A DNA stretch of 64,000 bases from Proteromonas lacertae (GCA_002245135.1 NGBS01000586.1:1-64000), one strand, 5' to 3'. Positions 15,708-55,155 are shown, counted from the first letter of the stretch. Notes: generated from the sequence alone by a model not told the origin. Translations and numbers: made by a program.

Positions 15708-15758
<51 letters not shown>

Positions 15759-16955: not shown

Positions 16956-17387
16956 AAATATTATTATTGGATTATTGCTTTTGTTTTTTAATAACAATAA
17001 AAACAAAATAAAGAAGAATATGATTTGAAGAGCGTTTTTATCTTTATACCAGCATCTTTTAGATGATTTACCATTCATAAGAATGTCAATTATGAAAGTA
17101 ATAACTACTCCAATTAAAACATCTGTTGTATTTTTAAACACTCATCAACTGGAGGTTCTCATACAGCCATTGATAATGTATAAACGCATCTTCTTGCAAT
17201 ATAGCTTGTTTTTAATATTTTGGCAAATATGTTTCAAATACTTCATTTTTATATTCTAAGAATATATCGACAAACATATATACAAATTAGATAATGATTA
17301 TGCTCATATTATTTCACTTAGAACAGATTTCATTCATTTAATAATTTTCAAAAATATATTCGTTTCATAATATTCAAAATTTAAAAA

Positions 17388-19791: not shown

Positions 19792-22700
19792 ATGTTAAAT
19801 CATCACATAGAAGAGATATTGAAATATAAATTACCGAAATTAGAAGTATTTGTTGTATATATATATACAATAGATCAAAGAAAGAAAAGAAAAGAATGAA
19901 AATGAAATAGATATGGTAATTAAACATGAAAATAACTGCAAAGTGGTTAAAATGTTGAATATTGATGGAATTAAAGAGAAGAAGATATTGAAATTTAGTG
20001 AAAATAATTGTTTTTTGTTAGATTATTGTTCATTTTTTACTTATCCTTCAGAAATACAGATCATCGGGTGTAATATGATGATTTTAGAAAGAGATTATTA
20101 TATGCGAGATTTGGAGGGGTTAATTCAAAATAAATCCTTATCAAGTGATGATATTTATAGTGTTATTCTGTCAATTTGTGATATTTTGATGATATTCAAT
20201 GAATATGAATTAGTGATAAGTAATTTGAAGAGTTCTAATGTGATATATGAAGATGATGGCAATATAAAAATGTGTGACTTATGTTCGAATGAAGTAAGAA
20301 AAGAAGAAGATATGAGTTTGTATGATTTGTGTTTCAAAAGTCCAGAAGAGTTGAATGGATATGAGTGTAATGAGAGAAGTGTGATTTGGTCAATTGGTTG
20401 TGTATTATATGAAATGATAAACAAGAAATTACCATTTAATGAAGATGATAACATGATTAAAACAATGAATAACATCCTGAAATGTAAATATAGTTTTAAA
20501 AGAAAAAGTAATAAGAAAATGAAAGAAATGATAGAAAGAATGTTGAAAATGAAGAGTGAAGATAGAATGATTTTAGAAGAGTTGGGAAAAGAAATGATTA
20601 AACTAAACGAGATATTGAAAGATGATAGTAATTATTTAATGTTGGATAATGAAAGAAAAGAATTGTTTTACCATAATGATAAAAAGAGTATTTCACTGCC
20701 AATGATATATCCGCCAATATATTATGTTAAAAATAAGACATGGAAAAAAATACGAAATGATTTAATAAAGTCATACAATAATAAGCCAAATGAAAGAATA
20801 CTATCAATATTATTAATGATAGAATGTGTCAATATAGATTATTCAATTAAAGAAAAACTGAAATTTCAAATTCATCATAAATGTAAAGAAGGCAAAAGTT
20901 GCTATTTGGATGAAATGATATTAAATTTATCTATTTTTATTGAAAGAAATGATGAAATAAGAATAGATATTGGATCAAAATGTATTTGTTTTTGTGAAGA
21001 AGGAATAGATTATTTCTTTAGAATAATAAAACTAATCAATCCAACAAAACTCAGATTTTGTATTATTTTTATAATTTGTATCTGATTAGATAAATATGAT
21101 AGAGATGTTATTTATTATTGTAATGATTATTTTAATATTCCAGTTCAATATCAGTCATTATTTGGATCATATTTTAAACAGTTATCAAACCTACAAGAAA
21201 TAGATTTATGTGGATATAATCTTACTTATGATTTCATTGAATCATTTATTAAATCAATTCTATTCATGAAACTGAAGTATATAGATATTCAACGTATATA
21301 TTATTCAAAATTATTTATTACATTGTAGGCAAGCCAATTGATAATAAGGGATTCAAATTATTAATTCCATATTTGAATTTATTGATCAACAACAAAAATG
21401 AATTAATCCTTTCTGAAATGAGATTGAATGATGATTCAATGATATTATTATCAAAAGAATTATATAAATATCCAAATCTTAGAAGAATAGACATTAGAAA
21501 TAATAAGAAAATTCATTCAAAAGGATTGAAAGCCTTATTCTCCAAATTTCCTATTTCAAAAATTGATTTTGATTTTGATGTTAAAAGAAATAAAGAATTA
21601 CTGATAGATAAAGACATTCCTGAATTGATGAAATTCATCAGATATAGTAATGAATTAGATCTTAGCGATTTAGATATTGATGATGATTATTTTTCATCAT
21701 TTATTTCATTAAGATTAAATGAACTTAGAGAGATTCAATATCTATATTTAGATAGTATAATTTGATGTTTTTCTATTGATTAGATAATAAACTTACAGAC
21801 AAAAGTGTGGAAGTATTAATGAACAATATGTCTTCTTTTTCAAGACTTACATGTCTTAGTTTAAGTGGAAATGAAATAGGAGATGAAGGAATGAGATTAT
21901 TATCTCCACATATGAATTTGTTAATACGTAAGCGTGATTGGAGAGAGAATATTGATTGTTCAAGTATTACTATAATCATTTATTGTGTTATAGGAATGGG
22001 ATTATCTTTAGTTGGATTGAAATATTTGGTTGATGGTTTAAAGAATATTCAGAAGAATATTGATACACTTTATTTATATGATAATAATATCGATTCAGAA
22101 GGAATGGAATATTTGATAAAAAATAAGACAAGCTTTAATAAGATGAGAATTAATAGTATATTTTTTATAGCATAATTATAGATAATCCAATTGGTAATAA
22201 AGGCTTTAAGTTGTTACTAGACGATTTATATATGTTAAAGGATGATTGTTATCCATATGAATTTGATTTGAATGATATCTCAATTGATGATGAAAGTGTA
22301 ATATTATTAAAAAATGCATTAGATTCAATAGGAGAATGTAAAATAATAGATCTGAAAGGAAATAATATCAAAATGAAAGCATTAAAATCAATTTGTTCAA
22401 AATCATTAAAAAAAGAAGAATATCCATTTATAGAAATGAAAAATTCATCATGGACAAATGAAGAAGTGAAATATTATTTGAATTATTGTGTTAAGAAAGG
22501 ATATCCATGCGATTTATCAAGTATATAATATAAATGTGTTATGAAATAGATTTGAATCTGAATGATTCTCTTATTCCATTAATAAAGAAGATTAATTATT
22601 GGAAAGTTTTCTTATCTAATAATCAAATCACTTCAAAAGGATTGAAAGAATTAGTAGAGTCTTTGCCTAAAAGAGCAGAATATATTTCAATATATGGCAA

Positions 22701-23121
22701 TCCAATTGGAGATGAAGGAATAGAGATAATATGCGATAACTGTGATGAATTTGCTGAATATCAATTATCATTAAATCTTTCAAGTATTTTATCAATATAA
22801 TATGTTGTTATATTATGAATAGATGTTGGAATGAATGAGAAAGGATTAAAAATGTTAATAAAAAGTATAAAAAAGTATGGAAGGTTAAGAAATGTGGATA
22901 TATCAGGAAATGAATTAAATGAAGAAGGGTTGAGATTAATGAAAGAAAATAGTAAAATATTTGAATATACTAAATTAACAATGACAGTAAAAGAAAACAT
23001 AGATAAATCAGAGTTAAAATCATTTCTAAAAACATTTTCATCAGTTCATACAATAAAATTAGATGGAATATCAGAAGAAGAAAAGAAAGAATTATCTAAA
23101 CAATTCTTTAATATTGAATAA
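19792..23121 (+). CDS. Pseudokinase + ribonuclease-inhibitor-type LRR protein
   Basis: Kinase C-lobe motifs are degenerate (ISNLKSSN, KMCDL, FKSPEE, SVIWSIGCVLYEM). They are followed by LRRs such as LSLSGNEIGDEGMRLL, LYLYDNNIDSEG and ISIYGNPIGDEG. First intron 19846-19873. Confidence 0.8.
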
Positions 23122-23139
23122 TTGATAGATAATTAAATC

Positions 23140-23930
23140 TATTGTTTCTGAACTTTTACCTTGAAGTAATGAGGATCTACTGATAGAACTAATAATTGAC
23201 GATTTAATTTGGATTATTTATCACTTGAGATTTATTAAAATCTGTCACCTGAATTAAGATAAATATTCTGTATCAACTCCTGGTGTTTCTTCATCTTCTA
23301 CTTCATCTAAACTAATATTATCACTATTTATTACATTCTCAAAATTATTATTCCAACATTTGATAATAATTTTTCACCTGAGATTAATTCAGATCTTGAT
23401 TTCGTTATTGGTGGAGGTAGAATATCAGCTACTGATGGAAATAATAACAATTCAGCAAATGAACAACAAATTAAAGAATTAATTATAATAGATGTAAAAT
23501 CATTGCTGTACAAACATTGCCTTCTTCAGATAAACTATCACATGAAGTTAAATATACTGAACATAATATGATATTCATCTCTTCAACTCCAATAGATAAA
23601 ATATCTTGTATATCACATAAGAAGACAAATATCTCTTCAGGTATATCATCTAATATTGCAGGTACTTGTACTGCGGATTGAAATAATACTGCATCTAATA
23701 AGATTACTTAATCTTTTATGCAAGTAAATTCCTTAGAAGATTTCATCCAAGTAACATATATTACCAAAGAAGTAGCTTCTAGATATCTTCCAGATAGTTC
23801 TTATATCACTTCACAAGAAGATATTTTAATCATTTTTTGTATATATAGGCTTGATTCTCTCAAATATTCAAGCCAAACTTTCTCATTTTCTTTTTCTCAT
23901 TATCTCACGATTCATGAATCAATTATTCAA
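23140..23930 (-). pseudogene. Decayed coding fragment, weakly CLEC16A/gop-1-like; second copy at about 53190-53985 (+)
   Basis: Coding-like stretch LDDIPEEIFVFLCDIQDILSIGVEEMNIILCS interrupted by stops. The family call is only a loose resemblance. Confidence 0.25.
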
Positions 23931-24000
23931 TCAAAATGCATATTCAAAAACAAAAACATATTAATAAGAATAATATAAGGTATAATAATAATAATAATTT

Positions 24001-27000
24001 CTATTCAATTATCTTCTTCTTTCTGAGTTCTTGTTTTGGTGCTTCAGATGATATTGTTCTTGTTTCAAATCTATTCACAGGATTAAAAGACTTTCTAGCT
24101 AAAGGAGGTAATAATCCACTCTTTGTTAATTGATTTAATGGTTTATTCAATACTTCAGGTAATTCAACTTTAGTAGGTTGTCTAGGAGATGTATTATCTT
24201 TACTACCTGTTGTATCTATCGATGAATTTGAACTGTTTGTGTTAGTTTCTCCAAACTTGTGTGTTATTGATGAAGCATTACTTGGAACTCTCTTATAATT
24301 AAACTCATCACTATCTCTACTATTCATTCGAAGACTAATTCCAGTATTATGTAACATCATTCCATCTGGCTTTGAAGAATTCAAATCTTCTTTATCAATA
24401 TCAGCATCATCCATTGTAACTGGTAATTGAGGAACTTTCAAAGCAGGTAATTGACTTGGTCTTGATCCAACTGGCTTTAGTTTTCTTCTAGTCATTCTTC
24501 TCTTTGGAGCATGGAATACTTTTTGTTCTATTGGTTTTGCATCAACTGGTGGATTTTGTCCATTCTGTCCATTTGAACCAACTGTTGCACTACTTATTGG
24601 ATTGGCATCAGATGGAATTATTGTTTTCAATTGTTTTTCTTCTTTCTTTTCACGTAATTTCTTATATAAATACATAAACAACAATGACATTAAAACCATT
24701 AACCACCAGAAACAACATACACCAGCTGATAACCCAATTACTAAAGCTCCATATTCATCCATAAATGATTTCTCTTTTAATCTTACACAAACATTATTCT
24801 TTTCTTCCCATAAACCATTTTCATTACATTTTCTTGGACCTGATCCTTCATTATATACGAAAGTTGGTTTACACATACCTTCTGTTGAGTTATTTGTTAA
24901 TGTCGCATTCCATATTGTTGATTCATCTTCATAACCAAGACATCCTAATAACAATGCTGATGTGGAGATTATTTCATTTGTTTGTGTCTTTTCTAATATT
25001 ATTGTGATATTATTGATGGATGTTCCATCTACACAAAGTGGTTCATTAAATTTATGTAAATCAATTATTCCTTCTTTACAATCATAAAGAAATTCCTCAA
25101 AGAAATGCTTTTGATCGCTGTTTGGATATTTATAGGATATTGTTAAAGGTATTACACTTGATTGATTATCACAACTTCCAACATGAATTGTTAATAATGT
25201 TCCTTCTACACAGAATCTATTATCTTCAGGTGGTTTACTCACATATACTTGATCTAAGGAGAATGTTGTATCTTGATAATCTGGATAAGTACAATAACCA
25301 CTTATATTCTCATATTTACCTTCATCTTTATTACATATTGCTTTGGGTCTACAAGATATATTCACATATTCATATTCTGATAAACAATCTCCTAATACTA
25401 TATCATCTCCACCTGGAGATAAACCAAATTGAAATCTATCAACTGAATATGATAAACAACCTAATGTTAATGGCGTTTCTGATAGTTTATTATCATTATA
25501 ATCTATTTCAAAACTCATTGTATTTATATTTTCTTCTAAACATATTTCAGGTGATATTCTATATTCAGATACTAATCCTGCTTTACAACTATATGGGAAA
25601 CTATATAAGAACTTTTTAACTCCATTTATTATATAATACACTTTCAATTGTAGATTCAATGTTGGTTTTCGACATTCTTCTCCATTGAAATACACTTCTA
25701 AAACTTCACTAATACAAAATTGTTTTTCATCTTTCACACTAATCTCAAGTTTAGCAACATTAACTTCAGGATAATCTTTTGGTAAACATTCACTTATACT
25801 ACTGTAACTAGAATCAGATTGACACTTTGCTGTTGGATAAGGTGTATCAAAGATTATATAACCATCTATACATTCTCCTTCAACTATATCACCTGGTAAT
25901 GAAAGTGGGAAATTGGCATTAGCAAACTCTGTTGATCCACATCCTAAATTAGCTGTTAAATCAGTTATGAAATCATTTTCATTTGATAATGAGAATAATA
26001 CATTCTCATATGTATCATTTACACAAATTGGAGATGATGGTTTTATTTTATATTCATTCATTGTTTTACAATCAAATGTTAAATTAGAAAATAGTAATTC
26101 ATCTATTTCACCTGATAAAAGATAAGTTAAACGATAATCTACAAATGTAGTATTACAACTATTTATCTCATATGTCAATATGACAGAATGAATACAAAAC
26201 TTATTCTCACTAATTGATAAGAATGAATCATCAACTGATAGTTTAAAGTATTTATACTCATCTAATACACATCTACTACTCATTACTCCCCATCCTTTAC
26301 CTGTACATTCTCTCATTGGATTACCTGTTGGAGTATTAGCTTTATAACCACCAGCATCACAATAACCTTCATTCATTCCAACTAACGATATATACCAATT
26401 ATCTCTACCAACTTTCACTTTTTCACATCCTAATACATATTTATCTGATTTTTCATATTTTCCATCAACATAAAGATCAAAAATAATGTAATTTGATTGG
26501 TTTATATAAATACATCTTTCTTCACTTATTGTGAATTTGTTATTCTCTTGACACATGAATGAGATATTTGTTGATGAATAAGATTGTTTTTCTTCATCTT
26601 CTGTAAAATGAGAAAACAATGATAATTTAAAGTATTTTTCTACTGTTGGACATTCTTTTGAATAAACCAAATTCACTGTTTGTGAAACACAGAATTGATC
26701 AGAAGCAGTCAAAGCTCTAACATAGAATTCTTTATAATCGAATGTTAAATCTTTATAAGCTATTTTAATAAGAATAAATAACAATATTATACTCTGTTTA
26801 TAACATGGATATTCTATTTCTTCCCATAATCCATCAGCATTACATTTTCTGAATGGATTATTATCATTATTTGGATTATCAGATACATAACCATTTGAAC
26901 ATTTACCTATTATTGTCCCTGGTAAGGAAGTATTGAAATTATTCTCACTTTCTTCTATATATTCACATCCAAGAACTATAATATAATAATATATAATAGA

Positions 27001-30000
27001 TATATCTATATACCTTCAACATGACGAATAAATTCAGTTCTATTAAACTCTAATGTCAATTCTAAAGTTGTGCCAGGATATTTAACCAACAATGGAATTG
27101 GTAAAACAAAATCACTATCAAATACATTTCCAGAATGACATGTATAATTAAATGTCGTTAATAACACTTTCTGAGCTGATGAACCATAATAACCATAAAT
27201 ATCTAATGGAACAGTATCATTATCATCAGGATGACAGTTGTAATTCTCAAGATGCATATTAAACTTTCCACTTACATCAAAATCTTTATTAACAACTTTC
27301 TTACTATCAACTGTTAAATCAAATACAAGATGAGTAAATGCATTACTTACACATTTATAATAAACAGCATCACTGAAATATAAACCTTGAAAACATTCTC
27401 TATATGAATGTCCATCTGGTCCAACTGATATATATCCTTCTTGACAATCACCATAAACTACAGGTTTTGGCACAGATAATGGCCAATAAGCGTTATATTC
27501 AATTTTATTAACACACCATCTATTTGGCATATCACATTTATAAGGAGTTAAATCCCATGTTCCATTCTGAAAACAAACTTTTGTTGGAACTTCTTCTGGA
27601 CCATTCCAACCTGATGTTTCCCATATACTTGTATTTGGACAAACATTTGTCATTGGTTTTAAAGGACTTGGATCCCAATCTAAACCATTGGAACTAACAG
27701 CTTCACAATACAATGGTTGTGTATATTTTTGAATTATCTTTTCACATTTCTTATCCATACACATTCTACAATTTAAATATCTCACATTTATTCCACTATA
27801 ATCAGTGAAATTCTTTGTAAATACATTCTTTTTCTTGAAAACAATAATCTACTTCTTCTGTTATTACATCTCCATCTATAAAACTATTCTCAAATTGAGA
27901 TAAAGTGTATTGAAGATAAATGATTGGTTGGAATTTTGTACATTTTTTCAAGTCAGTTAAATATAATGGACCATTCAGTGTTACAGCTGTTACTATTTTT
28001 CTGTTTGAACTTAAATTCAAGTGTATATCCAAATCACCAAATTCCCAATCAAATTCTGGTCTTATTTGATATGTACATCCTTTCGATGGTGAAGACCAAC
28101 TTCCTCCCACTAAACATTTTCTTGTTGGAAAATCTGCTCCATCATCATTATCATATATATAATCAGGTAAACATCTTCCTGTTATATTTTCATTCACTAT
28201 TGATTGTAACCAAGATGCATTATAAGCATTTTCTTCTTCTTTACATGCTATTGGATATGTTTCTTGTTGAGATGGAACACTACAATCATCTAATCTTGTA
28301 GCTAAACATATCTTTGCATGTAAATTCAACTTATTCTCTTCAGATGGATAAACATGAACTAATCTTGTAAAACTGACAGGAGGAGTATTTCGACAATAAG
28401 AATCATTAGTATAATCTAATGGAACATAATCATTAAATGATTTCTCTAACAATGAATAACCAAATTTGATTTGAGTATCAGGAGGTAATATACTACATTT
28501 TACATAAGCAACTGTAAATGTAAAGGTTATATTGTATTCACCAGTTTCATTATTTATATAATTACCACTAACACCACTTAATGTTATTACTGTTCCAGGT
28601 AAATCAATCAACATACAACTGTTATTATAAGAACCCCATTTTCCATCAATATTACATTGTCTTTCTAATAATTGACTTTCTGGTTGAGTATAAAACTCTC
28701 TACATTCACCTAAATGAGTTCCAAATCCTGCTTTTCTCCATGTTACTTCATTTGCTTCATTTTCTGAACAGAATACTCTTTGAGTTTTGGTTTTTAGTAC
28801 TTTTGAACATGATGAATCTACACATAACTCAAATGTGAAATAATCATAAGAATATTCTAATTGAGAATATGCAGGAATTTCCATTTCATACTTATTACCT
28901 TCCCAACAATAAGGGATTTCTTTTGTTTTATAATAATCCATTATACCATCTTCTTCAGAAAAACCATATCTTACATATAAACTAAATGGTGTGAAATTAT
29001 AATTACATTCAAATCGATCATAAAGTGAGATATTTCCAAATATTACATTACTATCATATTCATCAATACTTGAATTAAGATAATCAAATGAGATTTCAAA
29101 TCCTGTTGTAATAGCTTCACATTTATAAGTAGTATCAAATGCTTTCCATAATCCATTTATATCACAATATCTCAATGGTCTTAAAGTTTTACCATTATAG
29201 TTAGTAAATGGTGGACAATCTCCTTCATTATATTGATCTAAACTACCATAATCCCATGTAATACTATAGGCAGTATCTTTATTACAATATGTTGCTTCTT
29301 TAAGTTCAGCAAAGGCAGAACCACAATTAAATATAGGATCACCATCTGGAGCAATTAAATAACTACTTAAATATTTATAATCAGATACTTCATTCTTCTT
29401 TATATATACATCATGATATAATGTATATGTATTATTATCTGTGAAACAATAAGGTATTACAATTTCCTTTAAAGAACATGGAAGTCTAACATATTTGAAA
29501 TCTGCAAAGATATAAGCAACTCTTAATGAATCAGGTTTCTTTGTATATTTACAGTAATAATCATCTTTTATTACAACATATCCATTCAAATGATAATATG
29601 ATGAATTAACAGATTCTATACTAAAGTTTCTACTCATTACAAATTTTGTTCCTGTATATTTACATGTTTGTGAGGTTGAAAATGCTTCAAATTGACCAGA
29701 TGGTAAACACAATGCTTTTGGTATATTTCCACCATCATATTCATGAAATTCTTCACAATAACCATATCCATATTCTCCTATCACTGCAGCACCCATAAAT
29801 CCAGATGATATTGATTTTGAAACACATGATAATTTGATATGATGCTTATTTAAAACAGCATTACATATTGGATCATAACAAAACATGAAATTCAATTGAT
29901 TATATGCTTTATTCACACTTACAGTATCTTTCAAACCAGTCATATTAAAATGATATGTACCATTCTCAAAACAATATGGTATTTTATGGACAGTTGTTGA

Positions 30001-33000
30001 ATATTTATTTATATCATTATTTATTAAGAATTTTACATATATTTCATTTGGTGTATAGGAAAATCTACATTCATCATTATCACGTAATATCATTATTCCA
30101 CCAACATGAACTAATTCTTTTTCATCAATTGTTACATTCAATAAACTTGTATCTACTGTAAAATGAGTATCCATTTTTTTACAAGCACCTGGTGGATAAT
30201 TATCCCATTTTCCATCTTCTTTACATTCTCTATAAGGTCTATAACCATCTGTATAATTGTGAAAAGCTTGACATATTCCTTCTACTACTTCTGATACATT
30301 ACTTAATCTCCATGATATTAAATGTTTTTCATCTGGACTGCAGAATGTTGCTATTGATTTTTGATCAAATGTTGTTTTGTTAGTTAAAGCATATTCTGGG
30401 AATGTTGGATACATTCTCCAATTCAAATAATGGTAATACTCTATATTATTCTTATGAACATTCTTAACTTCAATTGGATATATTACACTATCATTCTCAA
30501 AACAATATGTAAAATTAACAAATTTATCACCTATTTCAAATGTACTTGTATCATTCTCTATTTCTGTCCATCTATAGTGATTTGATACTAAATCTTGATG
30601 ACGAGTATAATTACATGACCATTTATCATCAATTTGAACATAACCAATGAAATTATAATAATCATTATTAACACTTGGTATTATGGATATATTTCCAGAT
30701 ATTTCAAAACCTGTTCCTTTATAATCACATCTTTCACTTTGTTTATTTGGCTGAATAAATTTACCTGATTCTTGACAAACACTTTCTGGATATTCACCTG
30801 GAATTGAGTAAGTATAAAATGCATAACAATAACCTTTGCTAGTTTCATTAAATGGACCATATTTAATATATAAATTATTCTCATAAAATCTTGTTTGATT
30901 ACAATATACAGCTATTATATATATATAAATAACATATACTAAGATTATAATATTGATTATCTTCTATTCTTCCATCTTCAAATCTAGCATAAAATTTGTT
31001 CATATATTCAGGCTTATTTGCTTTAAAATTAACTAAATCATATTCATATCTATCAAAATCTTCATTATATTTAACTTCAATCACTATCATGATAACTTGT
31101 ACATCCTGTACATACATTTTCAATTGAATATACAAATCCCAAATATATGGAAAGATATGCAGGAATAAATTCATATTTAACTTTTACTGTTTGAGTAATT
31201 GTTATTTTACCATTAATCACAGCATATCCATCTTCATCCATATAGGCTGTAGCATTTACATCAAAAACAAATACTCTATCTAAATCTGTACATCCTGTTT
31301 TTGATCTATTAAAGTAATTATAATATCCATTCTTTTCACATCTTCTTTCAAGATCATTTTTATCACCATAAAATTCAGTAAATACAGGGACAATGTCAGC
31401 AGTATGATTTAAACCAATACTAGTAGATGTCCAATACAATAAATTAATAGTTTCACTTGGACAATATGTTGCTATTACTATTTCTTGAAATGTTAAAGAA
31501 CTAGTAAAATTCCATCTTGGTTCATTCTTATATGGAGATAATCTTATTAAAGCATAATGGATGAATTACCAGATTGATAGTGAATTGAAGTTAATTGTAA
31601 AATTATAATATAATTTATTATTGAAACAATATGGTATAGCATAAGAATATTTTGTATTACTATAATCTCGATCAAATGATGTATTACTACTTGAAAAGAA
31701 GAATGTAATGTTAATATAATTTTGATGATATATATAATTACATTCTGAATGATCATCAATGTTTGCATATCCTCTTATACTATAGTAATATTTATTTTGA
31801 CTATCATAATAACTATATGGTTTATTTATATAAGCATCTATTTCAAATTGTGTGCCATTATAAAAACAATATTCATTACTATCTAAACTAGCAAAATTTC
31901 CATCTAATTCACATTCAGTTGATGGCTTTTTAGAATCATCAACATAATAATACATTGGAGCACAATAACCTTCAGTTGATGTATTTGTTGGAGTTGGTAC
32001 AAACCAAGCATTATTCTCATATAAACTTCGACATGTTAATACTATTCAAATATATATAACAATTATTATACTTCTATAATCTACTCCATATACTTCATTA
32101 GCTAAGAATCTATTATCTTTAAAAATCTTCACTACAAAATAATTACTAAACACTGCATTCTGATTCACATATATTTTATCAATTGGAATACTTAATACAT
32201 TATTATTAAAACAATAATTATAATATTTATCTACATAACCATATTTATAATTATCACATCTATCTGTGTATTCACTGTAACAATATACTATAGATAACTG
32301 TGAAGGAGGAAATGGAGAACCACACTCCAATATATCATGAATTAACACATTACCACTCACTTTTGTTTTATTAAATGATAAAACTTCAATTTTCAATTGT
32401 GAAAAATCAATTTTGAATATGTCACTTTCTTTAATGCATTCATTTGTTGTTGCTTCCCAATTTCCATCATCTTTACATTTTCTCTTATTATCAACTTTTG
32501 GTTTCCAGAATGTAATACATGTTCCATTAGCTATACCTGGAACTGAATTAACATAAGACATTTCACCAACTTTTTCAGCTTTACAGTAATTATCTATACA
32601 TTATTATAACAAATAAAATATACATGTATAGATATTACTATCATATTTGTAAGATTTTGCATCAGATAAAACTATATATAATGTTCTAATAGTTAAACTG
32701 CTTATTCCAATATTCAAATTATATGAATATGTATTGTTTATAAATGGATATGATATTTTACTACCTGAATTACAAGGTGTTGCTGGATTTGTTACTTTTG
32801 ATTGAAAACAAACATATAAATAAACTTCTGAAGGAGGATATAATCGAGTATTCATTGATAAATCATTAATAACTATTGTTCCATAAGCTTTTGGATTATT
32901 CACATTGGTATTATCAAATGTTACACCATCAAAGTTCATTTTTAATTCAGGTGCTATTCATATTTATATATACAAACATATATATACGTTTAAATTCACA

Positions 33001-39400: not shown

Positions 39401-39921
39401 TTGTATGGTTAATGTGGACTATATTTATGAAATATTTTATTACTTGTTGTTGCAACACATGTAAAGTATGTTTTTGTAGTTGTTGTTTTGAAAGATATAA
39501 TTTCGAGAAATATCCAAATACTCATATTCCAACTTATTCTGGAATGTTTATATATGAATTAGATCCTTATTATTACCATGAATTAGATAAATTAGCGATT
39601 AAAGAGAATTGGCATATTGAAGATTGTCAAACTGATGATGGTTATATCACACAAGTGAAAATGAAAGTTTGGACTTTAAAGCCTTTAATTCCAAAGAAAA
39701 CATATGAAGTACTTGCTGAGACTGGATTGCATACTTACAATATAAATGCTAATCCTATCTATAAGGATGCTATGAAGGCTAAAATGCAAGTAAAACATCA
39801 GGAGACATTTTCAAATATAAATGATATAAATCATAGGGGATCAGTAGATTATTCTGCAGATATAGAAAACTATGACTATATGCAAGATAGTCATGATCCT
39901 TCAAAAGATTGTGAAGTTTAG
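36488..39921 (+). CDS. OSCA/TMEM63/CSC1-like multi-pass ion channel
   Basis: GSGIVLYFWLLKQL, TASDYSVWVEGLP, APNPSDMIWEN, YPDFTSAWYTGVG, QDELDQLYEG, SGIPLFY and FWVDKAFFLRMYRRPP; about 10 TM segments and a Cys-rich extracellular loop. Four short introns. Confidence 0.85.
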
Positions 39922-40039
39922 GTTTTATGGTTAGATGTATATGTTTTTATTTTATTATCAATTATTGAATTATATATTGTTTTATTGAATAAAAGAATGA
40001 AAATGAATTTTGTAAAACGACTCTTTTTCTTTAATTACA

Positions 40040-41313: not shown

Positions 41314-41625
41314 ATAATTAAACAAAATGTGCTTATATAAAACCTTTTTGTGGGGTTAATCAGAAATAGAGATGAATTTACACCACTATTTGCTGTATAT
41401 AATTGCTACTATAGGGATTTAAAGTTCATAAGATGTTTTATGTACACACTACTTGTGATGAGCATGAAGTGTAGAGATAGTAAAATTTATGTTCTTTTTT
41501 TAACTTTTTCACAATCGACTTAAATATATTAAAATAATATACAACTCATTACAACTTCACGAAAAAATCAGAATAGAAGCTTTATAAAAAATTATCGGTT
41601 GGGGGGTTTCATCTTTTCTATTTGA

Positions 41626-44600
41626 ATGAAAGTGGTTATTGCGTTTCTTTTTGCGTTTATTGCTATAGTTTCAGGTACTATTTTTTTTTCTTATACTGTT
41701 TTAGCAAATAAATGTCCTTTAAAACTGAATGACGGTTATGCCGATTGGCCAGAGTCAGAAGAAGGTCAAGTCACCTCTAAATGTCATGAAGGATATGTGA
41801 GTGAGAAGTTACCATACAGAAACTGTACAAATGGTCAGTGGTCAGAAATTAGCTTTAAATGTTATCCTCATGGTTCACCTCGTATGTTACAAGGAATTTG
41901 TATGCTTGTTGTTTTTTAGTGTATAATAGGGCCACCTGAGTATGAGATTAACTTTGAAAATCTGATAATCAAAGTAAGTGATAGTGGATATGATATAACA
42001 GGATTATTTTCTGTGTATGATGGTGCAAAATGTGATATGAATGAAATGTTCAAAGATTATGGTTATAAAGTTGAATACATTTGGGGTTTTGGAAGAGATA
42101 ATACAACTTTATATGAATCAGAGAGTGTTACAATTGATAGTTGTTACTCAGCTACCAATTATAAACAGGTTTTTAATGTAAATGTTCATACATCTGATTT
42201 ACACAACGTATATTTGAATGTTAGAAATAGAATGGCAACTACTACTTTTGATATTCTAAGTTGGTCATATAGTATATTTATATGAATTTATATTAAATAG
42301 AAATTGTTTGTGAAAGTGAATCAATCTATAACACATTCTATCCAATAACAGCAACAAACACAGAAGCAACTGGAGAATGTGAATTAACATATCACAATAG
42401 AGTAGATGGTGTAAATCCAATGAGAAAATGTACAAACAGTGTTTGGGAAACAGCTGATAATAATGCTTGTGTAAAATATAAATTTCCAAAAGTTACAGTT
42501 GATTTTAGTGAAGTAGAATCAACCTATATATCAAGTGGATCAAGTCAAGGTAAAATTAAATATTCTGGTAATATAATATTAAGAACAAATAAATGTGATA
42601 ATACTTTATTACCAAAGATGTTTGTATATGTAATGTTTGATAGTAAAAGTAATACCAAATTTGATGGAATAACTCCTGTTAATGTTAGCTATTGTTTTAG
42701 TGATTATAAAGTATCAATTCCAATTCCAACTCAAGAAGTTGCATATAATTTTTATGAAGTATCAGTTGGAGTATTTGGAACAAACAAAATGACAGATGAA
42801 TTAATAATAGATTCATTTGGTATATTTATTAACATTATTAATTATGATAAATAGATATTCAATGTAATTCACCTGATCCTGTTGAATATAATATCGATTG
42901 GGATATTACTATCAAAGGTATTGGTTATGGTAAATGTGTTGAATATTATAGATGGATTGGATCTGGTGATAAACCAACCAGAGAATGTTTAGGAAATAAT
43001 AAATATACTACAAATGATAAAACTAACTGTGAAGAATTCAGTATTTATATATTTATATTAATATAATTATTATAGTTCCTGATATTGACATAAAATTAGA
43101 AATTGATTGGGATGATAATTATGAGAAAGTATTAGGTGGAAATTATACAATCATTTATCCAACATGTGATTCAAAGAATACATTTCCATTAACATATAAA
43201 GTTTCTTACAATTATGATGGTGGAAAAGACAAACCACAAAGTGAGATTGCTTCTTGTATTCAGAATATTGAAAACAAATTACCATTAGCACCTGGTAAAA
43301 CACCTCAACAAAGTAAACTGATATTCACATTTTTTACAAAAGATATGAAACATGAATTTTTAACAAAAGATGTGTATTTAGTATGTCAAGAAACAATAAC
43401 TAATAATATAACTTGGGAAAGAACTCCATCTGGTCAAACAAGAACATATGATGATTTTGCCTGTAAACCATTCTATGAATTTGATGGTTCAAATCCAGCA
43501 ATATCAAGAAAATGTTTAGATAATGGAACTTGGGAATATTCTCCATATATATGTTTATTTGAAGGAGCAAGTATATAATATTATTTGTTATTGTAATTGA
43601 ATAGAATTTAATGTTGATGTTTCTGATGTTAAAACAGAAATGAATAATAATAATATAGTTGCAATTGAAGGAAAAGTAAAAGTAACAGATAGTACAAATT
43701 GTAAAGGTAATAAAGGAAAGTTATATTATAAATATGGAATATGTGATGCTGAGATATATACTACAAATTCAACTTGTAACTTCATAAAAGGAAGTAAAGA
43801 TTATTGTTTCATAGGAAATCAATTAGATATTATACCTCCTAATAAAATATCATTGGCTGGAAAAGAACACTTTTTACATTTAAGAATTGGAACTGATGAA
43901 AATAATCCAAGTGATTTTGTTTATACTAAAAGTATATAAATATTTAATTATGATGTTATTATATAGGATTATCCTGTAAAGATTATGTAAAAAATAATAT
44001 GATATTTCCATTATCATTGATTGGAGAAGTTGAAGGAAAATGTAATACAAGTTATGAATATAAAGAAGAAGGAAAAGCTCCAAAACTGACATGTCAAACA
44101 ACTGGATGGATTGAAACAAGTAGTTCATGTGAATTTAAACGTATATATATGTTTGTATATATAAATATGAATAGCACCTGAATTAAAAATGAACTTTGAT
44201 GGTGTAACATTTGATAATACCAATGTGAATAATCCAAAAGCTTATGGAACAATAGTTATTAATGATTTATCAATGAATACTCGATTATATCCTCCTTCAG
44301 AAGTTTATTTATATGTTTGTTTTCAATCAAAAGTAACAACTCCAGCAACACCTTGTAATTCAGGTAGTAAAATATTATATCCATTTATAAACAATACATA
44401 TTCATATAATTTGAATATTGGAATAAGCAGTTTAACTATTAGAACATTATATATAGTTTTATCTGATGCAAAATCTTACAAATATGATAGTAAAATCTAT
44501 ACATGTATATTTTATTTGTTATAATAATGTATAGATAATTACTGTAAAGCTGAAAAAGTTGGTGAAATGTCTTATGTTAATTCAGTTCCAGGTATAGCTA

Positions 44601-47600
44601 ATGGAACATGTATTACATTCTGGAAACCAAAAGTTGATAATAAGAGAAAATGTAAAGATGATGGAAATTGGGAAGCAACAACAAATGAATGCATTAAAGA
44701 AAGTGACATTTTCAAAATTGATTTTTCACAATTGAAAATTGAAGTTTTATCATTTAATAAAACAAAAGTGAGTGGTAATGTGTTAATTCATGATATATTG
44801 GAGTGTGGTTCTCCATTTCCTCCTTCACAGTTATCTATAGTATATTGTTACAGTGAATACACAGATAGATGTGATAATTATAAATATGGTTATGTAGATA
44901 AATATTATGCTTATTGTTTTAATAATAATGTATTAAGTATTCCAATTGATAAAATATATGTGAATCAGAATGCAGTGTTTAGTAATTATTTTGTAGTGAA
45001 GATTTTTAAAGATAATAGATTCTTAGCTAATGAAGTATATGGAGTAGATTATAGAAGTATAATAATTGTTATATATATTTGAATAGTATTAACATGTCGA
45101 AGTTTATATGAGAATAATGCTTGGTTTGTACCAACTCCAACAAATACATCAACTGAAGGTTATTGTGCTCCAATGTATTATTATGTTGATGATTCTAAAA
45201 AGCCATCAACTGAATGTGAATTAGATGGAAATTTTGCTAGTTTAGATAGTAATGAATATTGTTTTTATAATGGCACACAATTTGAAATAGATGCTTATAT
45301 AAATAAACCATATAGTTCTTATGATAGTCAAAATAAATATTACTATAGTATAAGAGGATATGCAAACATTGATGATCATTCAGAATGTAATTATATATAT
45401 CATCAAAATTATATTAACATTACATTCTTCTTTTCAAGTAGTAATACATCATTTGATCGAGATTATAGTAATACAAAATATTCTTATGCTATACCATATT
45501 GTTTCAATAATAAATTATATTATAATTTTACAATTAACTTCAATCACTATCAATCTGGTAATCACCATTATGCTTTAATAAGATTATCTCCATATAAGAA
45601 TGAACCAAGATGGAATTTTACTAGTTCTTTAACATTTCAAGAAATAGTAATAGCAACATATTGTCCTAGTGAAACTATTAATTTATTGTATTGGACATCT
45701 ACTAGTATTGGTTTAAATCATACTGCACATTGTCCTGTATTTACTGAATTTTATGGTGATAAAAATGATCTTGAAAGAAGATGTGAAAAGAATGGATATT
45801 ATAATTACTTTAATAGATCAAAAACAGGATGTACAGATTTAGATAGAGTATTTGTTTTTGATGTAAATGCTACAGCCTATATGGATGAAGATGGATATGC
45901 TGTGATTAATGGTAAAATAACAATTACTCAAACAGTTAAAGTTAAATATGAATTTATTCCTGCATATCTTTCCATATATTTGGGATTTGTATATTCAATT
46001 GAAAATGTATGTACAGGATGTACAAGTTATCATGATAGGATTGAAGTTAAATATAATGAAGATTTTGATAGATATGAATATGATTTAGTTAATTTTAAAG
46101 CAGATAAGCCTGAATATATGAACAAATTTTATGCTAAATTTGAAGATGGAAGAATAGAAGATAATCTATATTATAATCTTAGTATATGATATTTATATAT
46201 ATATAATAGCTGTATATTGTAATCAAACAAGATTTTATGAGAATAATTTATATATTAAATATGGTCCATTTAATGAAACTAGCAAAGGTTATTGTTATGC
46301 ATTTTATACTTACTCAATTCCAGGTGAATATCCAGAAAGCGTTTGTCAAGAATCAGGTAAATTTATTCAGCCAAATAAACAAAGTGAAAGATGTGATTAT
46401 AAAGGAACAGGTTTTGAAATATCTGGAAATATATCCATAATACCAAGTGTTAATAATGATTATTATAATTTCATTGGTTATGTTCAAATTGATGATAAAT
46501 GGTCATGTAATTATACTCGTCATCAAGATTTAGTATCAAATCACTATAGATGGACAGAAATAGAGAATGATACAAGTACATTTGAAATAGGTGATAAATT
46601 TGTTAATTTTACATATTGTTTTGAGAATGATAGTGTAATATATCCAATTGAAGTTAAGAATGTTCATAAGAATAATATAGAGTATTATCATTATTTGAAT
46701 TGGAGAATGTATCCAACATTCCCAGAATATGCTTTAACTAACAAAACAACATTTGATCAAAAATCAATAGCAACATTCTGCAGCCCAGATGAAAAACATT
46801 TAATATCATGGAGATTAAGTAATGTATCAGAAGTAGTAGAAGGAATATGTCAAGCTTTTCACAATTATACAGATGGTTATAGACCTTATAGAGAATGTAA
46901 AGAAGATGGAAAATGGGATAATTATCCACCAGGTGCTTGTAAAAAAATGGATACTCATTTTACAGTAGATACAAGTTTATTGAATGTAACAATTGATGAA
47001 AAAGAATTAGTTCATGTTGGTGGAATAATGATATTACGTGATAATGATGAATGTAGATTTTCATATACACCAAATGAAATATATGTAAGATTCTTAATAA
47101 ATAATGATATAAATAAATATTCAACAACTGTCCATAAAATACCATATTGTTTTGAGAATGGTACATATCATTTTAATATGACTGGTTTGAAAGATACTGT
47201 AAGTGTGAATAAAGCATATAATCAATTGAATTTCATGTTTTGTTATGATCCAATATGTAATGCTGTTTTAAATAAGCATCATATCAAATTATCATGTGTT
47301 TCAAAGTCAATATCATCTGGATTTATGGGTGCTGCAGTGATAGGAGAATATGGATATGGTTATTGTGAAGAATTTCATGAATATGATGGTGGAAATATAC
47401 CAAAAGCATTGTGTTTACCATCTGGTCAATTTGAAGCATTTTCAACCTCACAAACATGTAAATATACAGGAACAAAATTTGTAATGAGTAGAAACTTTAG
47501 TATAGAATCTGTTAATTCATCATATTATCATTTGAATGGATATGTTGTAATAAAAGATGATTATTACTGTAAATATACAAAGAAACCTGATTCATTAAGA

Positions 47601-50600
47601 GTTGCTTATATCTTTGCAGATTTCAAATATGTTAGACTTCCATGTTCTTTAAAGGAAATTGTAATACCTTATTGTTTCGCAGATAATAATACATATACAT
47701 TATATCATGATGTATATATAAAGAAGAATGAAGTATCTGATTATAAATATTTAAGTAGTTATTTAATTGCTCCAGATGGTGATCCTATATTTAATTGTGG
47801 TTCAGCCTTTGCTGAACTTAAAGAAGCAACATATTGTAATAAAGATACTGCTTATAGTATTACATGGGATTATGGTAGTTTAGATCAATATAATGAAGGA
47901 GATTGTCCACCATTTACTAACTATAATGGTAAAACTGTAAGACCATTGAGATATTGTGATATAAATGGATTATGGAAAGCATTTGATACTACTTATAAAT
48001 GTGAAGCTATTACAACAGGATTTGAAATCTCATTTGATTATCTTAATTCAAGTATTGATGAATATGATAGTAATGTAATATTTGGAAATATCTCACTTTA
48101 TGATCGATTTGAATGTAATTATAATTTCACACCATTTAGTTTATATGTAAGATATGGTTTTTCTGAAGAAGATGGTATAATGGATTATTATAAAACAAAA
48201 GAAATCCCTTATTGTTGGGAAGGTAATAAGTATGAAATGGAAATTCCTGCTTATTCTCAATTAGAATATTCTTATGATTATTTCACATTTGAGTTATGTG
48301 TAGATTCATCATGTTCAAAAGTACTAAAAACCAAAACTCAAAGAGTATTCTGTTCAGAAAATGAAGCAAATGAAGTAACATGGAGAAAAGCAGGATTTGG
48401 AACTCATTTAGGTGAATGTAGAGAGTTTTATACTCAACCAGAAAGTCAATTATTAGAAAGACAATGTAATATTGATGGAAAATGGGGTTCTTATAATAAC
48501 AGTTGTATGTTGATTGATTTACCTGGAACAGTAATAACATTAAGTGATGTTAGTGGTAATTATATAAATAATGAAACTGGTGAATATAATATAACCTTTA
48601 CATTTACAGTTGCTTATGTAAAATGTAGTATATTACCTCCTGATACTCAAATCAAATTTGGTTATTCATTGTTAGAGAAATCATTTAATGATTATGTTCC
48701 ATTAGATTATACTAATGATTCTTATTGTCGAAATACTCCTCCTGTCAGTTTTACAAGATTAGTTCATGTTTATCCATCTGAAGAGAATAAGTTGAATTTA
48801 CATGCAAAGATATGTTTAGCTACAAGATTAGATGATTGTAGTGTTCCATCTCAACAAGAAACATATCCAATAGCATGTAAAGAAGAAGAAAATGCTTATA
48901 ATGCATCTTGGTTACAATCAATAGTGAATGAAAATATAACAGGAAGATGTTTACCTGATTATATATATGATAATGATGATGGAGCAGATTTTCCAACAAG
49001 AAAATGTTTAGTGGGAGGAAGTTGGTCTTCACCATCGAAAGGATGCACATATCAAATAAGACCAGAATTTGATTGGGAATTTGGTGATTTGGATATACAC
49101 TTGAATTTAAGTTCAAACAGAAAAATAGTAACAGCTGTAACACTGAATGGTCCATTATATTTAACTGACTTGAAAAAATGTACAAAATTCCAACCAATCA
49201 TTTATCTTCAATACACTTTATCTCAATTTGAGAATAGTTTTATAGATGGAGATGTAATAACAGAAGAAGTAGATTATTGTTTCAAGAAAAAGAATGTATT
49301 TACAAAGAATTTCACTGATTATAGTGGAATAAATGTGAGATATTTAAATTGTAGAATGTGTATGGATAAGAAATGTGAAAAGATAATTCAAAAATATACA
49401 CAACCATTGTATTGTGAAGCTGTTAGTTCCAATGGTTTAGATTGGGATCCAAGTCCTTTAAAACCAATGACAAATGTTTGTCCAAATACAAGTATATGGG
49501 AAACATCAGGTTGGAATGGTCCAGAAGAAGTTCCAACAAAAGTTTGTTTTCAGAATGGAACATGGGATTTAACTCCTTATAAATGTGTATATCCAGATGA
49601 ATGGTGTCCAAAGGAAACAAAGTATAATGCTTATTGGCCAATATCTGTGCCAAAACCTGTAGTTTATGGTGATTGTCAAGAAGGATATATATCAGTTGGA
49701 CCAGATGGACATTCATATAGAGAATGTTTTCAAGGTTTATATTTCAGTGATGCTGTTTATTATAAATGTGTAAGTAATGCATTTACTCATCTTGTATTTG
49801 ATTTAACAGTTGATAATAAGAAAGTTGTTAATAAAGATTTCGATGTAAGTGGAAAGTTTAATATGCATCTTGAAAATTACAACTGTCATCCTGATGATAA
49901 TGATACTGTTCCATTAGATATTTATGGTTATTATGGTTCATCAGCTCAGAAAGTGTTATTAACTACATTTAATTATACATGTCATTCTGGAAATGTATTT
50001 GATAGTGATTTTGTTTTACCAATTCCATTGTTGGTTAAATATCCTGGCACAACTTTAGAATTGACATTAGAGTTTAATAGAACTGAATTTATTCGTCATG
50101 TTGAAGGTATATAGATATATCTATTATATATTATTATTATTATAGTTCTTGGATGTGAATATATAGAAGAAAGTGAGAATAATTTCAATACTTCCTTACC
50201 AGGGACAATAATAGGTAAATGTTCAAATGGTTATGTATCTGATAATCCAAATAATGATAATAATCCATTCAGAAAATGTAATGCTGATGGATTATGGGAA
50301 GAAATAGAATATCCATGTTATAAACAGAGTATAATATTGTTATTTATTCTTATTAAAATAGCTTATAAAGATTTAACATTCGATTATAAAGAATTCTATG
50401 TTAGAGCTTTGACTGCTTCTGATCAATTCTGTGTTTCACAAACAGTGAATTTAGTTTATTCAAAAGAATGTCCAACAGTAGAAAAATACTTTAAATTATC
50501 ATTGTTTTCTCATTTTACAGAAGATGAAGAAAAACAATCTTATTCATCAACAAATATCTCATTCATGTGTCAAGAGAATAACAAATTCACAATAAGTGAA

Positions 50601-53120
50601 GAAAGATGTATTTATATAAACCAATCAAATTACATTATTTTTGATCTTTATGTTGATGGAAAATATGAAAAATCAGATAAATATGTATTAGGATGTGAAA
50701 GAGTGAAAGTTGGTAGAGATAATTGGTATATATCGTTAGTTGGAATGAATGAAGGTTATTGTGATGCTGGTGGTTATAAAGCTAATACTCCAACAGGTAA
50801 TCCAATGAGAGAATGTACAAGTAAAGGATGGGGAGTAATGAGTAGTAGATGTGTATTAGATGAGTATAAATACTTTAAACTATCAGTTGATGATTCATTC
50901 TTATCAATTAGTGAGAATAAGTTTTGTATTCATTCTGTCATATTGACATATGAGATAAATAGTTGTAATACTACATTTGTAGATTATCGTTTAACTTATC
51001 TTTTATCAGGTGAAATAGATGAATTACTGTTTTCTAATTTAACATTTGATTGTAAAACAATGAATGAATACAAAATCAAACCATCATCTCCAATTTGTGT
51101 AAATGATACATATGAGAATGTATTATTCTCATTATCAAATGAAAATGATTTCATAACTGATTTAACAGCTAATTTAGGATGTGGATCAACAGAGTTTGCT
51201 AATGCCAATTTCCCACTTTCATTACCAGGTGATATAGTTGAAGGAGAATGTATAGATGGTTATATAATCTTTGATACACCTTATCCAACAGCAAAGTGTC
51301 AACCTGATTCTAGTTACAGTAGTATAAGTGAATGTTTACCAAAAGATTATCCTGAAGTTAATGTTGATAAACTTGAGATTAGTGTGAAAGATGACAAACA
51401 ATTTTGTATTAGTGAAGTTTTAGAAGTGTATTTCAATGGAGAAGAATGTCGAAAACCAACATTGAATCTACAATTGAAAGTGTATTATATAATAAATGGA
51501 GTTAAAAAGTTCTTATATAGTTTCCCATATAGTTGTAAAGCAGGATTAGTATCTGAATATAGAATATCACCTGAAATATGTTTAGAAGAAAATGTAAATA
51601 CAATGAGTTTTGAAATAGATTATAATGATAATAAACTATCAGAAACACCATTAACATTAGGTTGTTTATCATATTCAGTTGATAGATTTCAATTTGGTTT
51701 ATCTCCAGGTGGAGATGATATAGTATTAGGAGATTGTTTATCAGAATATGAATATGTGAATATATCTTGTAAACCCAAAGCAATATGTAATAAAGATGAA
51801 GGTAAATATGAGAATATAAGTGGTTATTGTACTTATCCAGATTATCAAGATACGACATTCTCCTTAGATCAAGTATATGTGAGTAAACCACCTGAAGATA
51901 ATAGATTCTGTGTAGAAGGAACATTATTAACAATTCATGTTGGAAGTTGTGATAATCAATCAAGTGTAATACCTTTAACAATATCCTATAAATATCCAAA
52001 CAGTGATCAGAAACATTTCTTTGAAGAATTTCTTTATGATTGTAAAGAAGGAATAATTGATTTACATAAATTTAATGAACCACTTTGTGTAGATGGAACA
52101 TCCATCAATAATATCACAATAATATTAGAAAAGACACAAACAAATGAAATAATCTCCACATCAGCATTGTTATTAGGATGTCTTGGTTATGAAGATGAAT
52201 CAACAATATGGAATGCGACATTAACAAATAACTCAACAGAAGGTATGTGTAAACCAACTTTCGTATATAATGAAGGATCAGGTCCAAGAAAATGTAATGA
52301 AAATGGTTTATGGGAAGAAAAGAATAATGTTTGTGTAAGATTAAAAGAGAAATCATTTATGGATGAATATGGAGCTTTAGTAATTGGGTTATCAGCTGGT
52401 GTATGTTGTTTCTGGTGGTTAATGGTTTTAATGTCATTGTTGTTTATGTATTTATATAAGAAATTACGTGAAAAGAAAGAAGAAAAACAATTGAAAACAA
52501 TAATTCCATCTGATGCCAATCCAATAAGTAGTGCAACAGTTGGTTCAAATGGACAGAATGGACAAAATCCACCAGTTGATGCAAAACCAATAGAACAAAA
52601 AGTATTCCATGCTCCAAAGCGAAGAATGACTAGAAGAAAATTAAAGCCAGTAGGATCAAGACCAAGTCAATTACCTGCTTTGAAAGTTCCTCAATTACCA
52701 GTTACAATGGATGATGCTGATATTGATAAAGAAGATTTGAATTCTTCAAAGCCAGATGGAATGATGTTACATAATACTGGAATTAGTCTTCGAATGAATA
52801 GTAGAGATAGTGATGAGTTTAATTATAAGAGAGTTCCAAGTAATGCTTCATCAATAACACACAAGTTTGGAGAAACTAACACAAACAGTTCAAATTCATC
52901 GATAGATACAACAGGTAGTAAAGATAATACATCTCCTAGACAACCTACTAAAGTTGAATTACCTGAAGTATTGAATAAACCATTAAATCAATTAACAAAG
53001 AGTGGATTATTACCTCCTTTAGCTAGAAAGTCTTTTAATCCTGTGAATAGATTTGAAACAAGAACAATATCATCTGAAGCACCAAAACAAGAACTCAGAA
53101 AGAAGAAGATTATTGAATAG
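41626..53120 (+). CDS. Giant modular type I surface protein, copy B (intact, 3,690 aa)
   Basis: Thirteen introns (41675-41704, 41900-41929, 42272-42300, 42820-42854, 43041-43075, 43571-43604, 43932-43966, 44141-44174, 44505-44534, 45057-45086, 46182-46209, 50107-50145, 50329-50361; 422 nt total) leave an 11,073-nt reading frame. It encodes a signal peptide, 21 C-x-W-x-G-x-C-x-R-x-C-x-G-x-W-x-C modules, 19 beta-rich domains, TM GALVIGLSAGVCCFWWLMVLMSLLFMYLY and a Ser/Pro-rich tail. Confidence 0.92.
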
Positions 53121-54000
53121 AAATTATTATTATTATTATACCTTATATTATTCTTATTAATATGTTTTTGTTTTTGAATATGCATTTTGATTGAATAATT
53201 GATTCATGAATCGTGAGATAATGAGAAAAAGAAAATGAGAAAGTTTGGCTTGAATATTTGAGAGAATCAAGCCTATATATACAAAAAATGATTAAAATAT
53301 CTTCTTGTGAAGTGATATAAGAACTATCTGAAAGATATCTAGAAGCTATTTCTTTGGTACTATATGTTACTTGGATGAAATCTTCTAAGGTATTTACTTG
53401 CATAAAAGATTAAGTAATCTTATTAGATGCAGTATTATCTCAATCCGCAATACAATTACGTGCAAGATTAGATGATATACCTGAAGAGATATTTGTCTTC
53501 TTATGTGATATACAAGATATTTTATCTATTGGAGTTGAAGAGATGAATATCATATTATGTTCAGTATATTTAACTTCATGTGATAGTTTATCTGAAGAAG
53601 GTAATGTTTGTACAGCAATGATTTTACATCTATTATAATTAATTCTTTAATTTGTTGTTTATTTGCTGAATTGTTATTATTTCCATCAGTAGCTGATATT
53701 CTACCTCCACCAATAACGAAATCAAGATCTGAATTAATCTAAGGTGAAAAATTATTATCAAATGTTGGAATAATAATTTTGAGAATGTAATAAATAGTGA
53801 TAATATTAGTTTAGATGAAGTAGAAGATGAAGAAACGCCAGGAGTTGATACAGAATATTTATCTTAATTCAGGTGACAGATTTTAATAAATCTCAAGTCA
53901 TAAATAATCCAAATTAAATCGTCAATTATTAGTTCTATCAGTAGATCCTCATTACTTCAAGGTAAAAGTTCAGAAACAATAGATTTAATTATCTAATCAA

Positions 54001-54468
54001 TTATTCAATATTAAAGAATTGTTTAGATAATTCTTTCTTTTCTTCTTCTGATATTCCATCTAATTTTATTGTATGGACTGATGAAAATGTTTTTAGAAAT
54101 GATTTTAATTCTGATTTATCTATGTTTTCTTTCACTGTCATTGTTAATTTAGTATATTCAAATATTTTACTATTTTCTTTCATTAATCTCAACCCTTTTT
54201 CATTTAATTCATTTCCTGATATATCCACATAACTTAACCTTCCATACTTTTTTATGCTTTTTATTAACATTTTTAATCCTTTCTCATTCATTCCAACATC
54301 TATTCATAATATAATAACATATTATATTGATAAAATACTTGAAAGATTTAATGATAATTGATTATTCAGTAAATATATCAAATATTTATGATATTATCTC
54401 TATTCCTTCATCTCCAATTGGATTGCCATATATTGAAATATATTCTGCTCTTTTATGAAAAGACTCTA
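54001..54468 (-). pseudogene. 5'-truncated duplicate of the pseudokinase-LRR gene 3' end
   Basis: Matches 22655-23121 (last exon near-identical), locally diverged at 54360-54395, and lacks everything upstream. Confidence 0.85.
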
Positions 54469-55031: not shown

Positions 55032-55155
55032 GAATCAATCTTGTCACTCATTATAAAAAAGTCAAATCATAAAAAAATACAAGTCAGAGTCTTTTAAGAT
55101 GATGTATTTGATAAAAAAGAATCTAATAACAAAACATAAACAGACAAAATCTTAA

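Follow-up and report, generated by a model that had tools for sequence, protein, structure and literature searches.

The first 64,000 nucleotides (nt) of contig NGBS01000586.1 (assembly GCA_002245135.1, Proteromonas lacertae), the window in what follows, contain a large palindrome in which two copies of a giant surface-protein gene lie head to head around a 6,026-nt spacer, their start codons at 35493 (-) and 41626 (+). This arrangement, proposed in an initial annotation made from the sequence, is borne out by BLAST of the window against itself, in which the inverted arms align over 12,913 columns at 98.07% identity with 211 mismatches and 22 gap openings (Table 1). The arm length of about 13 kb given in that annotation describes the main match well but understates the repeat, as a second inverted match (16344-16974 against 55082-54467, 93%) extends the right arm without a gap. 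Since the two matches abut, the right arm equals the left region minus 5.7 kb. Two neighbors, a DNAAF5-like gene and a kinase–leucine-rich repeat (LRR) gene, are whole on the left, while on the right their 3′ ends alone are present, meeting at a 2-nt microhomology; the right arm therefore appears to be the derived copy.

The giant gene is best read in its right copy, where 13 GT-AG introns of 28-39 nt (11 placed by script and 2 by eye) all fall in phase 1 and at domain borders. Such placement is the pattern of exon shuffling, and the middle of the gene is a single 3.9-kb exon. Behind a hydrophobic N-terminus, the outer part of the protein alternates 21 cysteine-rich, HRM-like domains of ~55 residues (16 found by pattern and 5 added by eye) with 19 immunoglobulin (Ig)-like domains of ~115 residues, followed by one further hydrophobic segment at about residues 3441-3470 (transmembrane) and a tail of ~220 residues. 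Pfam HRM (PF02793) scores above its cut-off in four of the seven giant-gene open reading frames (ORFs) scanned. A model of one HRM-plus-Ig unit gives an all-beta, two-domain piece with a predicted local distance difference test (pLDDT) score of 86, and the whole would form a long surface rod.

Table 1. Features of the palindromic locus (window coordinates)
Feature	Position	Strand	Remarks
Left arm, main part	22655..35545		self-BLAST
Right arm, main part (inverted copy, 98.07%)	41572..54468		self-BLAST
Giant gene, right copy	41626..53120	+	14 exons, 3,690 residues, open throughout; computed model, no RNA
Giant gene, left copy	24001..35493	-	frame broken as assembled
Tip exon 3 (first Ig-like domain), right version	41930..42271	+
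Tip exon 3, left version	34851..35192	-
Inner-edge relic, diverged 5′ leader	41572..41625	+	left copy 35494-35550
Near-identical block (exon 1, intron 1, most of exon 2)	41626..41865	+	4/240 differ; between two islands
Diverged patch, junction of tandem HRM-like domains 15/16	49586..49645	+	left copy 27475-27534
Outer-edge relic	55037..55082	-	~70% identical in register to DNAAF5-like exon 16344-16390
Left-only 5.7 kb (small gene, most of kinase-LRR gene)	16975..22654	+
DNAAF5-like HEAT-repeat gene, 3′ part	15201..16953	+	intact; left flank; start near 14050
Orphan 3′ fragment of DNAAF5-like gene	54467..55036	-	source 16391-16974
Orphan 3′ fragment of kinase-LRR gene	54001..54468	-	source 22655-23121
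Small gene X, within arm	53290..53870	+	approximate limits; left copy about 23250-23830 (-)
Spacer gene 1, multi-exon membrane protein	36490..39921	+	Anoctamin match sub-threshold (E 0.0096)
Spacer gene 2, DHDPS-family aldolase	40202..41161	+	E 8e-42
Poly(A) polymerase gene, 3′ part	55200..56483	-	right arm stops just behind

The arms had been described as near-identical through exons and introns alike. This is true of the core of the giant gene, where 58 of 10,783 bases differ (99.5% identity), but not of five islands with 15-35% divergence, namely the two ends of the arms, the tip exon, a 59-nt patch in mid-stalk and a ~30-nt spot within the LRR fragment (left 22733-22761). Outside the giant gene's coding sequence, differences number 0/200 in its 3′ untranslated region (UTR), 14/580 in gene X and 8/459 in the LRR fragment. 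Of the 57 core coding differences, 31 are synonymous and 26 non-synonymous, giving per-site differences of 1.4% at synonymous sites (pS) and 0.32% at non-synonymous sites (pN), a ratio of 0.23; the core is thus under purifying selection. Introns 3-13 together with the 3′ UTR are more alike between the arms (1/562) than are synonymous sites (31/2,251; p 0.013), an excess that base composition may explain.

Between 41866 and 42270, a stretch running from late exon 2 across intron 2 and exon 3, 56 of 374 aligned bases differ, besides indels; the divergence ceases 2 nt short of the donor site of intron 3. Over its 30 nt, intron 2 shows 8 mismatches and a gap, against one mismatch and one gap in the 362 nt of introns 3-13 combined. 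The similarity of the two intron 2 copies does not reach significance by itself (p 0.10). Local divergence at the tip, synonymous and intron sites included, far exceeds that of its flanks: exon 3 has a synonymous divergence (dS) of 0.43 and a non-synonymous divergence (dN) of 0.25, compared with a core pS of 0.014, and intron 3 is identical. In the mid-stalk patch, 14 of 59 bases and 10 residues differ.

Divergence of comparable depth is found at both ends of the repeat. At the inner edge the 5′ leader differs at 11 of 51 bases. The ~60 nt upstream of the two start codons had been noted as homologous yet strongly diverged, and the alignment agrees: 39 of its 57 columns match, more than in AT-matched random pieces of the window (p 5e-5); beyond ~55 nt upstream, homology is not detectable (p 0.31 and 0.15). 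At the outer edge, in-register alignment at ~70% persists for 45-60 nt past the high-identity block (33/47, p 4e-4; 42/62, p 1.5e-4, again relative to AT-matched random pieces). This outer relic lies in DNAAF5-like, single-copy sequence and therefore could not have been supplied by a third adhesin gene. Because one end island sits in a single-copy gene, an old duplication homogenized since is favored. The contention that the duplication is older than the arm identity implies, and has been homogenized, is supported by this old-level divergence at both arm ends and in the internal islands, intron and synonymous sites among them. An old duplication followed by arm-to-arm copying would be expected to leave islands of similar depth, as here, both in the interior and along the edges.

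Within the tip domain the differences are far from evenly spread. The two versions are 66% identical in amino acid sequence, differing at 38 of 112 residues, and 50 of the codons fall into three invariant runs (p 5e-5). A predicted model of the domain (pLDDT 68; predicted template modeling score 0.54) is a seven-strand sandwich. On this model, the N-terminal pole, made up of the N-terminus together with loops two, four and six, carries 33 differences in 61 residues and the other pole 5 in 51. Thus 33 of the 38 fall on one predicted pole, a count reached by only 2 of 112 cyclic shifts. As a control, 10 further Ig-like domains were set against their database homologues, and there the two poles changed to the same extent (141/620 vs. 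139/545). Synonymous differences, too, are rarer in the invariant runs (5/33 sites vs. 8/16, p 0.016), as if conversion reached those parts of the tip that selection does not guard. A wide structural search, which covered the tip domain and not the HRM-plus-Ig unit, returned as best matches generic Ig-like domains only (Z 7-8.6).

Database relatives of the protein bear on the mid-stalk patch as well. Three of 5,801 candidates proved homologous to the last exon (80, 75 and 33% identity) and eight proteins to exon 12, of which P0015 is probably a generic HRM match only; the more distant members, at 28-35% identity, make this a small family. Exon 12 compared with longer proteins yielded 0 of 3,225 candidates, two metagenome scans confirmed 0 of 596 and 0 of 297 pattern matches, and the Atlas gave a single low match (score 0.76, HRM on 39% of 51 members), which serves as a lead only. 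For one cluster, that of P0009, 15 of 20 members were listed and 14 compared, the divergent P0023 being left aside. Among these 14, 7 of the 23 variable columns fall in a 12-residue stretch that overlaps the mid-stalk patch in its first half (p 2e-4), so the patch would seem to be a hot spot in the relatives too; their patch variants are not shared with the window. For the same 14 members, all four combinations occur in 88 of the 153 informative site pairs. In the P0003 cluster (P0003 and P0005-P0008; n = 5), 32 of the 36 variable columns lie in the cytoplasmic tail, with the outer part almost invariant and the tails built of two-type blocks in mixed order. These mosaics fit exchange between two versions; alleles, or assembly paths through mixed samples, fit them too.

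The reading that best accommodates these observations, to which a probability of about 0.68 may be given, is an old inverted duplication of a giant surface-protein gene whose arms have been kept alike by gene conversion while selection preserved two binding tips. About 19 kb of the left region would first have been copied in inverted orientation between the aldolase and poly(A) polymerase genes; the copy would then have lost 5.7 kb, so that orphan 3′ ends were all that remained in it of two neighbors. The arms would have diverged by ~25-35% at neutral sites, after which repeated repair of one arm from the other would have erased this divergence over ~13 kb, functionless gene fragments included, sparing the edges. 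Conversion running into the tip would have been removed by selection where it touched the loops of one pole. The outcome would be two long rods on display with the same stalk and two specificities, with spacer inversion an occasional by-product of little effect. The tip is a putative binding domain, and the clustering of differences on one predicted pole is an indirect sign that the diverged sites may differ in function.

Several points weigh against this interpretation. Core mismatches are evenly spaced (p 0.45) and a tract test was negative; individual conversion tracts are consequently invisible in the core, and one long recent overwrite fits it equally well. Synonymous divergence climbs only mildly outward (0.9% then 2.3%, p 0.011). 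The last exon is 99% identical between the arms against 74-79% to homologues, but no relative is shown with two copies. At the tip, exon 3 has a dN/dS of 0.58 (95% interval 0.33-1.04), which is not above 1, and alignment found a homologue of the exon among none of 191 candidates. The pole labels derive from the strand list of a middling model, without coordinates and with alternating strand direction assumed, and the pole test was devised after the clustering had been noticed, on residues that are not independent. Finally, 9 surplus bases, at 8 sites in 5 clusters, interrupt the left giant gene, which as assembled stops in exon 2.

The evenly spaced core mismatches also suit a different history, in which the inverted duplication is recent (1-3% neutral divergence) and one copy took in its leader, tip exon and patch from a third family member at another place in the genome. 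Neutral divergence is indeed 1-2.4%, and alike in the core, gene X and the LRR fragment, and other family members do exist in related organisms. Such a history would require at least three separate imports of similar age, however, and leaves the in-register DNAAF5-like relic unexplained; the members found, at 28-35% identity, are moreover too distant to have donated a tip that is 66% identical. It is accordingly unlikely, if still the most serviceable of the alternatives.

Somewhat less likely again is that the left copy is a decaying, silent one, at most a sequence donor to a single working right copy. All five frameshift clusters, and so all 9 inserted coding bases, are confined to it, the first causing the stop in exon 2. 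Of the six amino acid differences that homologues polarize clearly, four are derived in the left copy, but four against two is not significant. Every one of the breaks is an insertion; relative to the right copy, the left has no coding deletion save one in-frame 6-nt difference. Elsewhere in the window, an unrelated coiled-coil gene (59893-62679, +; the gene spans 59893-64000) shows six successive +1 frameshifts with no intron candidate at any of them, meaning that the assembly carries uncorrected insertion errors, and the left-copy breaks are most likely errors of the same kind. A silent copy also sits poorly with the pN/pS between the copies, and with a left tip exon that is open and keeps its domain pattern.

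The initial annotation further suggested that a crossover within the arms would invert the spacer and swap promoters and variable tips between the two stalks, as a potential switching mechanism. This proposal finds no support in the layout of the locus: each promoter is located within the spacer, immediately ahead of its own tip exon. The two would therefore move together, and a flip would change no expression state. Switches of the Hin and Fim type change the pairing of promoter and gene by inversion, with a linked site-specific recombinase and both orientations present in a clone. Here, in neither orientation does inversion re-pair a promoter with a gene or a variable end, and no site-specific recombinase was seen among the 30 of 116 listed window ORFs scanned. 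Little separates the stalks that would be exchanged (25 residues, the 10-residue patch and an indel of 2 residues), and the cytoplasmic tails are identical. Crossing over anywhere from exon 3 to the patch could produce at most new tip–patch pairs and could not turn a tip on or off; the locus is probably not an on/off switch. That 13-kb inverted arms can recombine, that spacer inversions are common in primate sex-chromosome palindromes and that the P0009 homologues are mosaic all speak for a spacer flipping often enough to alter what the cell displays. Those primate inversions are, however, described as mostly harmless (PMC8327919), and the mosaics may be assembly paths through mixed samples, leaving a working switch improbable.

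Weakest of all is an assembly artefact, a fold-back chimera or two misjoined haplotypes. The insertion errors lend it some color, but the islands stay in frame, and a 5.7-kb loss, a new junction and a different neighbor set the flanks apart. Moreover, synonymous changes account for 31 of the 57 core coding differences although synonymous sites make up 22% of the total (p 7e-8 under random error). The inverted repeat is real and not one molecule misread twice.

Old duplication with arm-to-arm conversion has known precedents. In primate sex-chromosome palindromes, the arms undergo gene conversion with each other (PMC8327919). The present locus resembles them in arms above 8 kb, ~99% core identity, a unique spacer, genes in the arms and inversion as an expected by-product; unlike them, it belongs to a microbial eukaryote, is 98% identical overall owing to its islands, and has one arm without 5.7 kb. 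Its 12.9-kb arms around a unique spacer surpass the length of at least 8 kb that defines gene-conversion palindromes, and against an identity of at least 99% the whole arm reaches 98.07% and the 10.8-kb core 99.5%. Divergence peaks under conversion are treated as a mark of selection in a review that cites RHD/RHCE and exon 5 of the red and green opsins (PMC3924837). There as here, one exon has diverged while the neighboring intron and the rest of the gene are homogenized; here, by contrast, the copies are inverted rather than tandem, and a whole binding-type domain is affected, with differences on one predicted pole. Among protists, the inverted VSP pairs of Giardia (PMC2996952) likewise place cysteine-rich surface-protein genes head to head with flank identity that ends abruptly. 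Those pairs comprise identical ORFs with non-coding spacers of 2-4 kb in a switching family of 300 genes (PMC2996952). The tips here are 66% identical, the 6-kb spacer bears genes and the protein is unrelated, and a pair of identical VSP-type genes was set aside as an identity for the locus. The mechanism, gene conversion with a selected divergence peak, is thus already known; the family of giant HRM/Ig-like proteins is apparently undescribed.

Should this account of conversion and selected tips be right, the locus would amount to a natural map of selection: conversion would have wiped out nearly all differences, and what remains would mark the surfaces that matter. Likely contact sites with host, microbiota or antibodies would then be three loops of a 113-residue domain and a 10-residue patch, out of 3,690 residues, and both tip domain and patch are small enough to express. 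A bolder extension likens the protein to an antibody scaffold, diversified in a gut-type protist through a constant, converted stalk, variable tip loops, a hypervariable mid-stalk site and palindrome crossovers that re-pair tip and patch, giving rise to fresh surface variants within living populations; we regard this as doubtful, an idea with perhaps one chance in five.

The HRM domain itself deserves comment. According to a preprint, it occurs almost only in holozoans, with HRM proteins other than G-protein-coupled receptors (GPCRs) in Fonticula alba (10.1101/2025.04.15.649019). The giant protein shares the domain with secretin and adhesion GPCRs and with those Fonticula proteins. It departs from both in that its 21 copies take turns with Ig-like domains, there is a single transmembrane segment, and neither a GAIN nor a seven-transmembrane match was obtained. 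An adhesion or secretin GPCR was accordingly rejected: HRM is present, yet neither GAIN nor seven transmembrane helices had a Pfam match in the ORFs scanned, and there is one hydrophobic segment besides the N-terminus. Solved structures searched by sequence returned only six weak PTH-receptor matches (best E 0.064), and Foldseek gave no match at E 0.001 for the tip model or the HRM-plus-Ig model. A 21-fold HRM-like repeat outside holozoans would bear on the origin of the domain.

As to lineage, the window uses the standard code, has 26% GC and introns of 28-39 nt, and contains the polyadenylation motif TGTTTGTT 15 times against 6.9 expected, a modest excess (maximum 13 in 100 shuffles). Code, GC, intron length and motif excess resemble Blastocystis traits (PMC5608401) and may point to an affinity in that direction. 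For a Blastocystis genome, duplicated blocks that are nearly identical have been reported, and conversion is among the causes proposed (PMC3129679). No literature linking Blastocystis to HRM repeats was found in a search of main texts, and gene lists in supplements may name the family; nor does PMC12129017, supplements excluded, contain a match for inverted, palindromic, adhesion or Ig-like. If the organism is a Blastocystis relative, the protein would be a candidate major adhesin in a lineage with poorly described surface proteins.

Some features of the surroundings merit record. The DNAAF5-like gene of the left flank (about 14050-16953, +; E 3e-15) encodes a relative of a dynein assembly factor, which would be noteworthy if the organism lacks a flagellum. 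In the spacer, gene 1 is presumably OSCA/TMC-like, and gene 2 is one we take to be N-acetylneuraminate lyase-like, possibly a sialic-acid lyase. This DHDPS-family aldolase adjoins the adhesin pair, and its ORF overruns a likely intron or end near 41090. Between it and the right giant gene is a short ORF with a hydrophobic stretch (about 41167-41314, +). Rfam has no match in 14000-57000. The start of gene X (23783-23856) has a third copy, 70 nt at 87% identity, at 19237-19307 in the left-only 5.7 kb, which would be the trace of an older local duplication. Farther out, at about 2500-7700 (-), lies an alpha-2-macroglobulin/thioester-family gene, with A2M, bait-region and TED matches, here in a protist.

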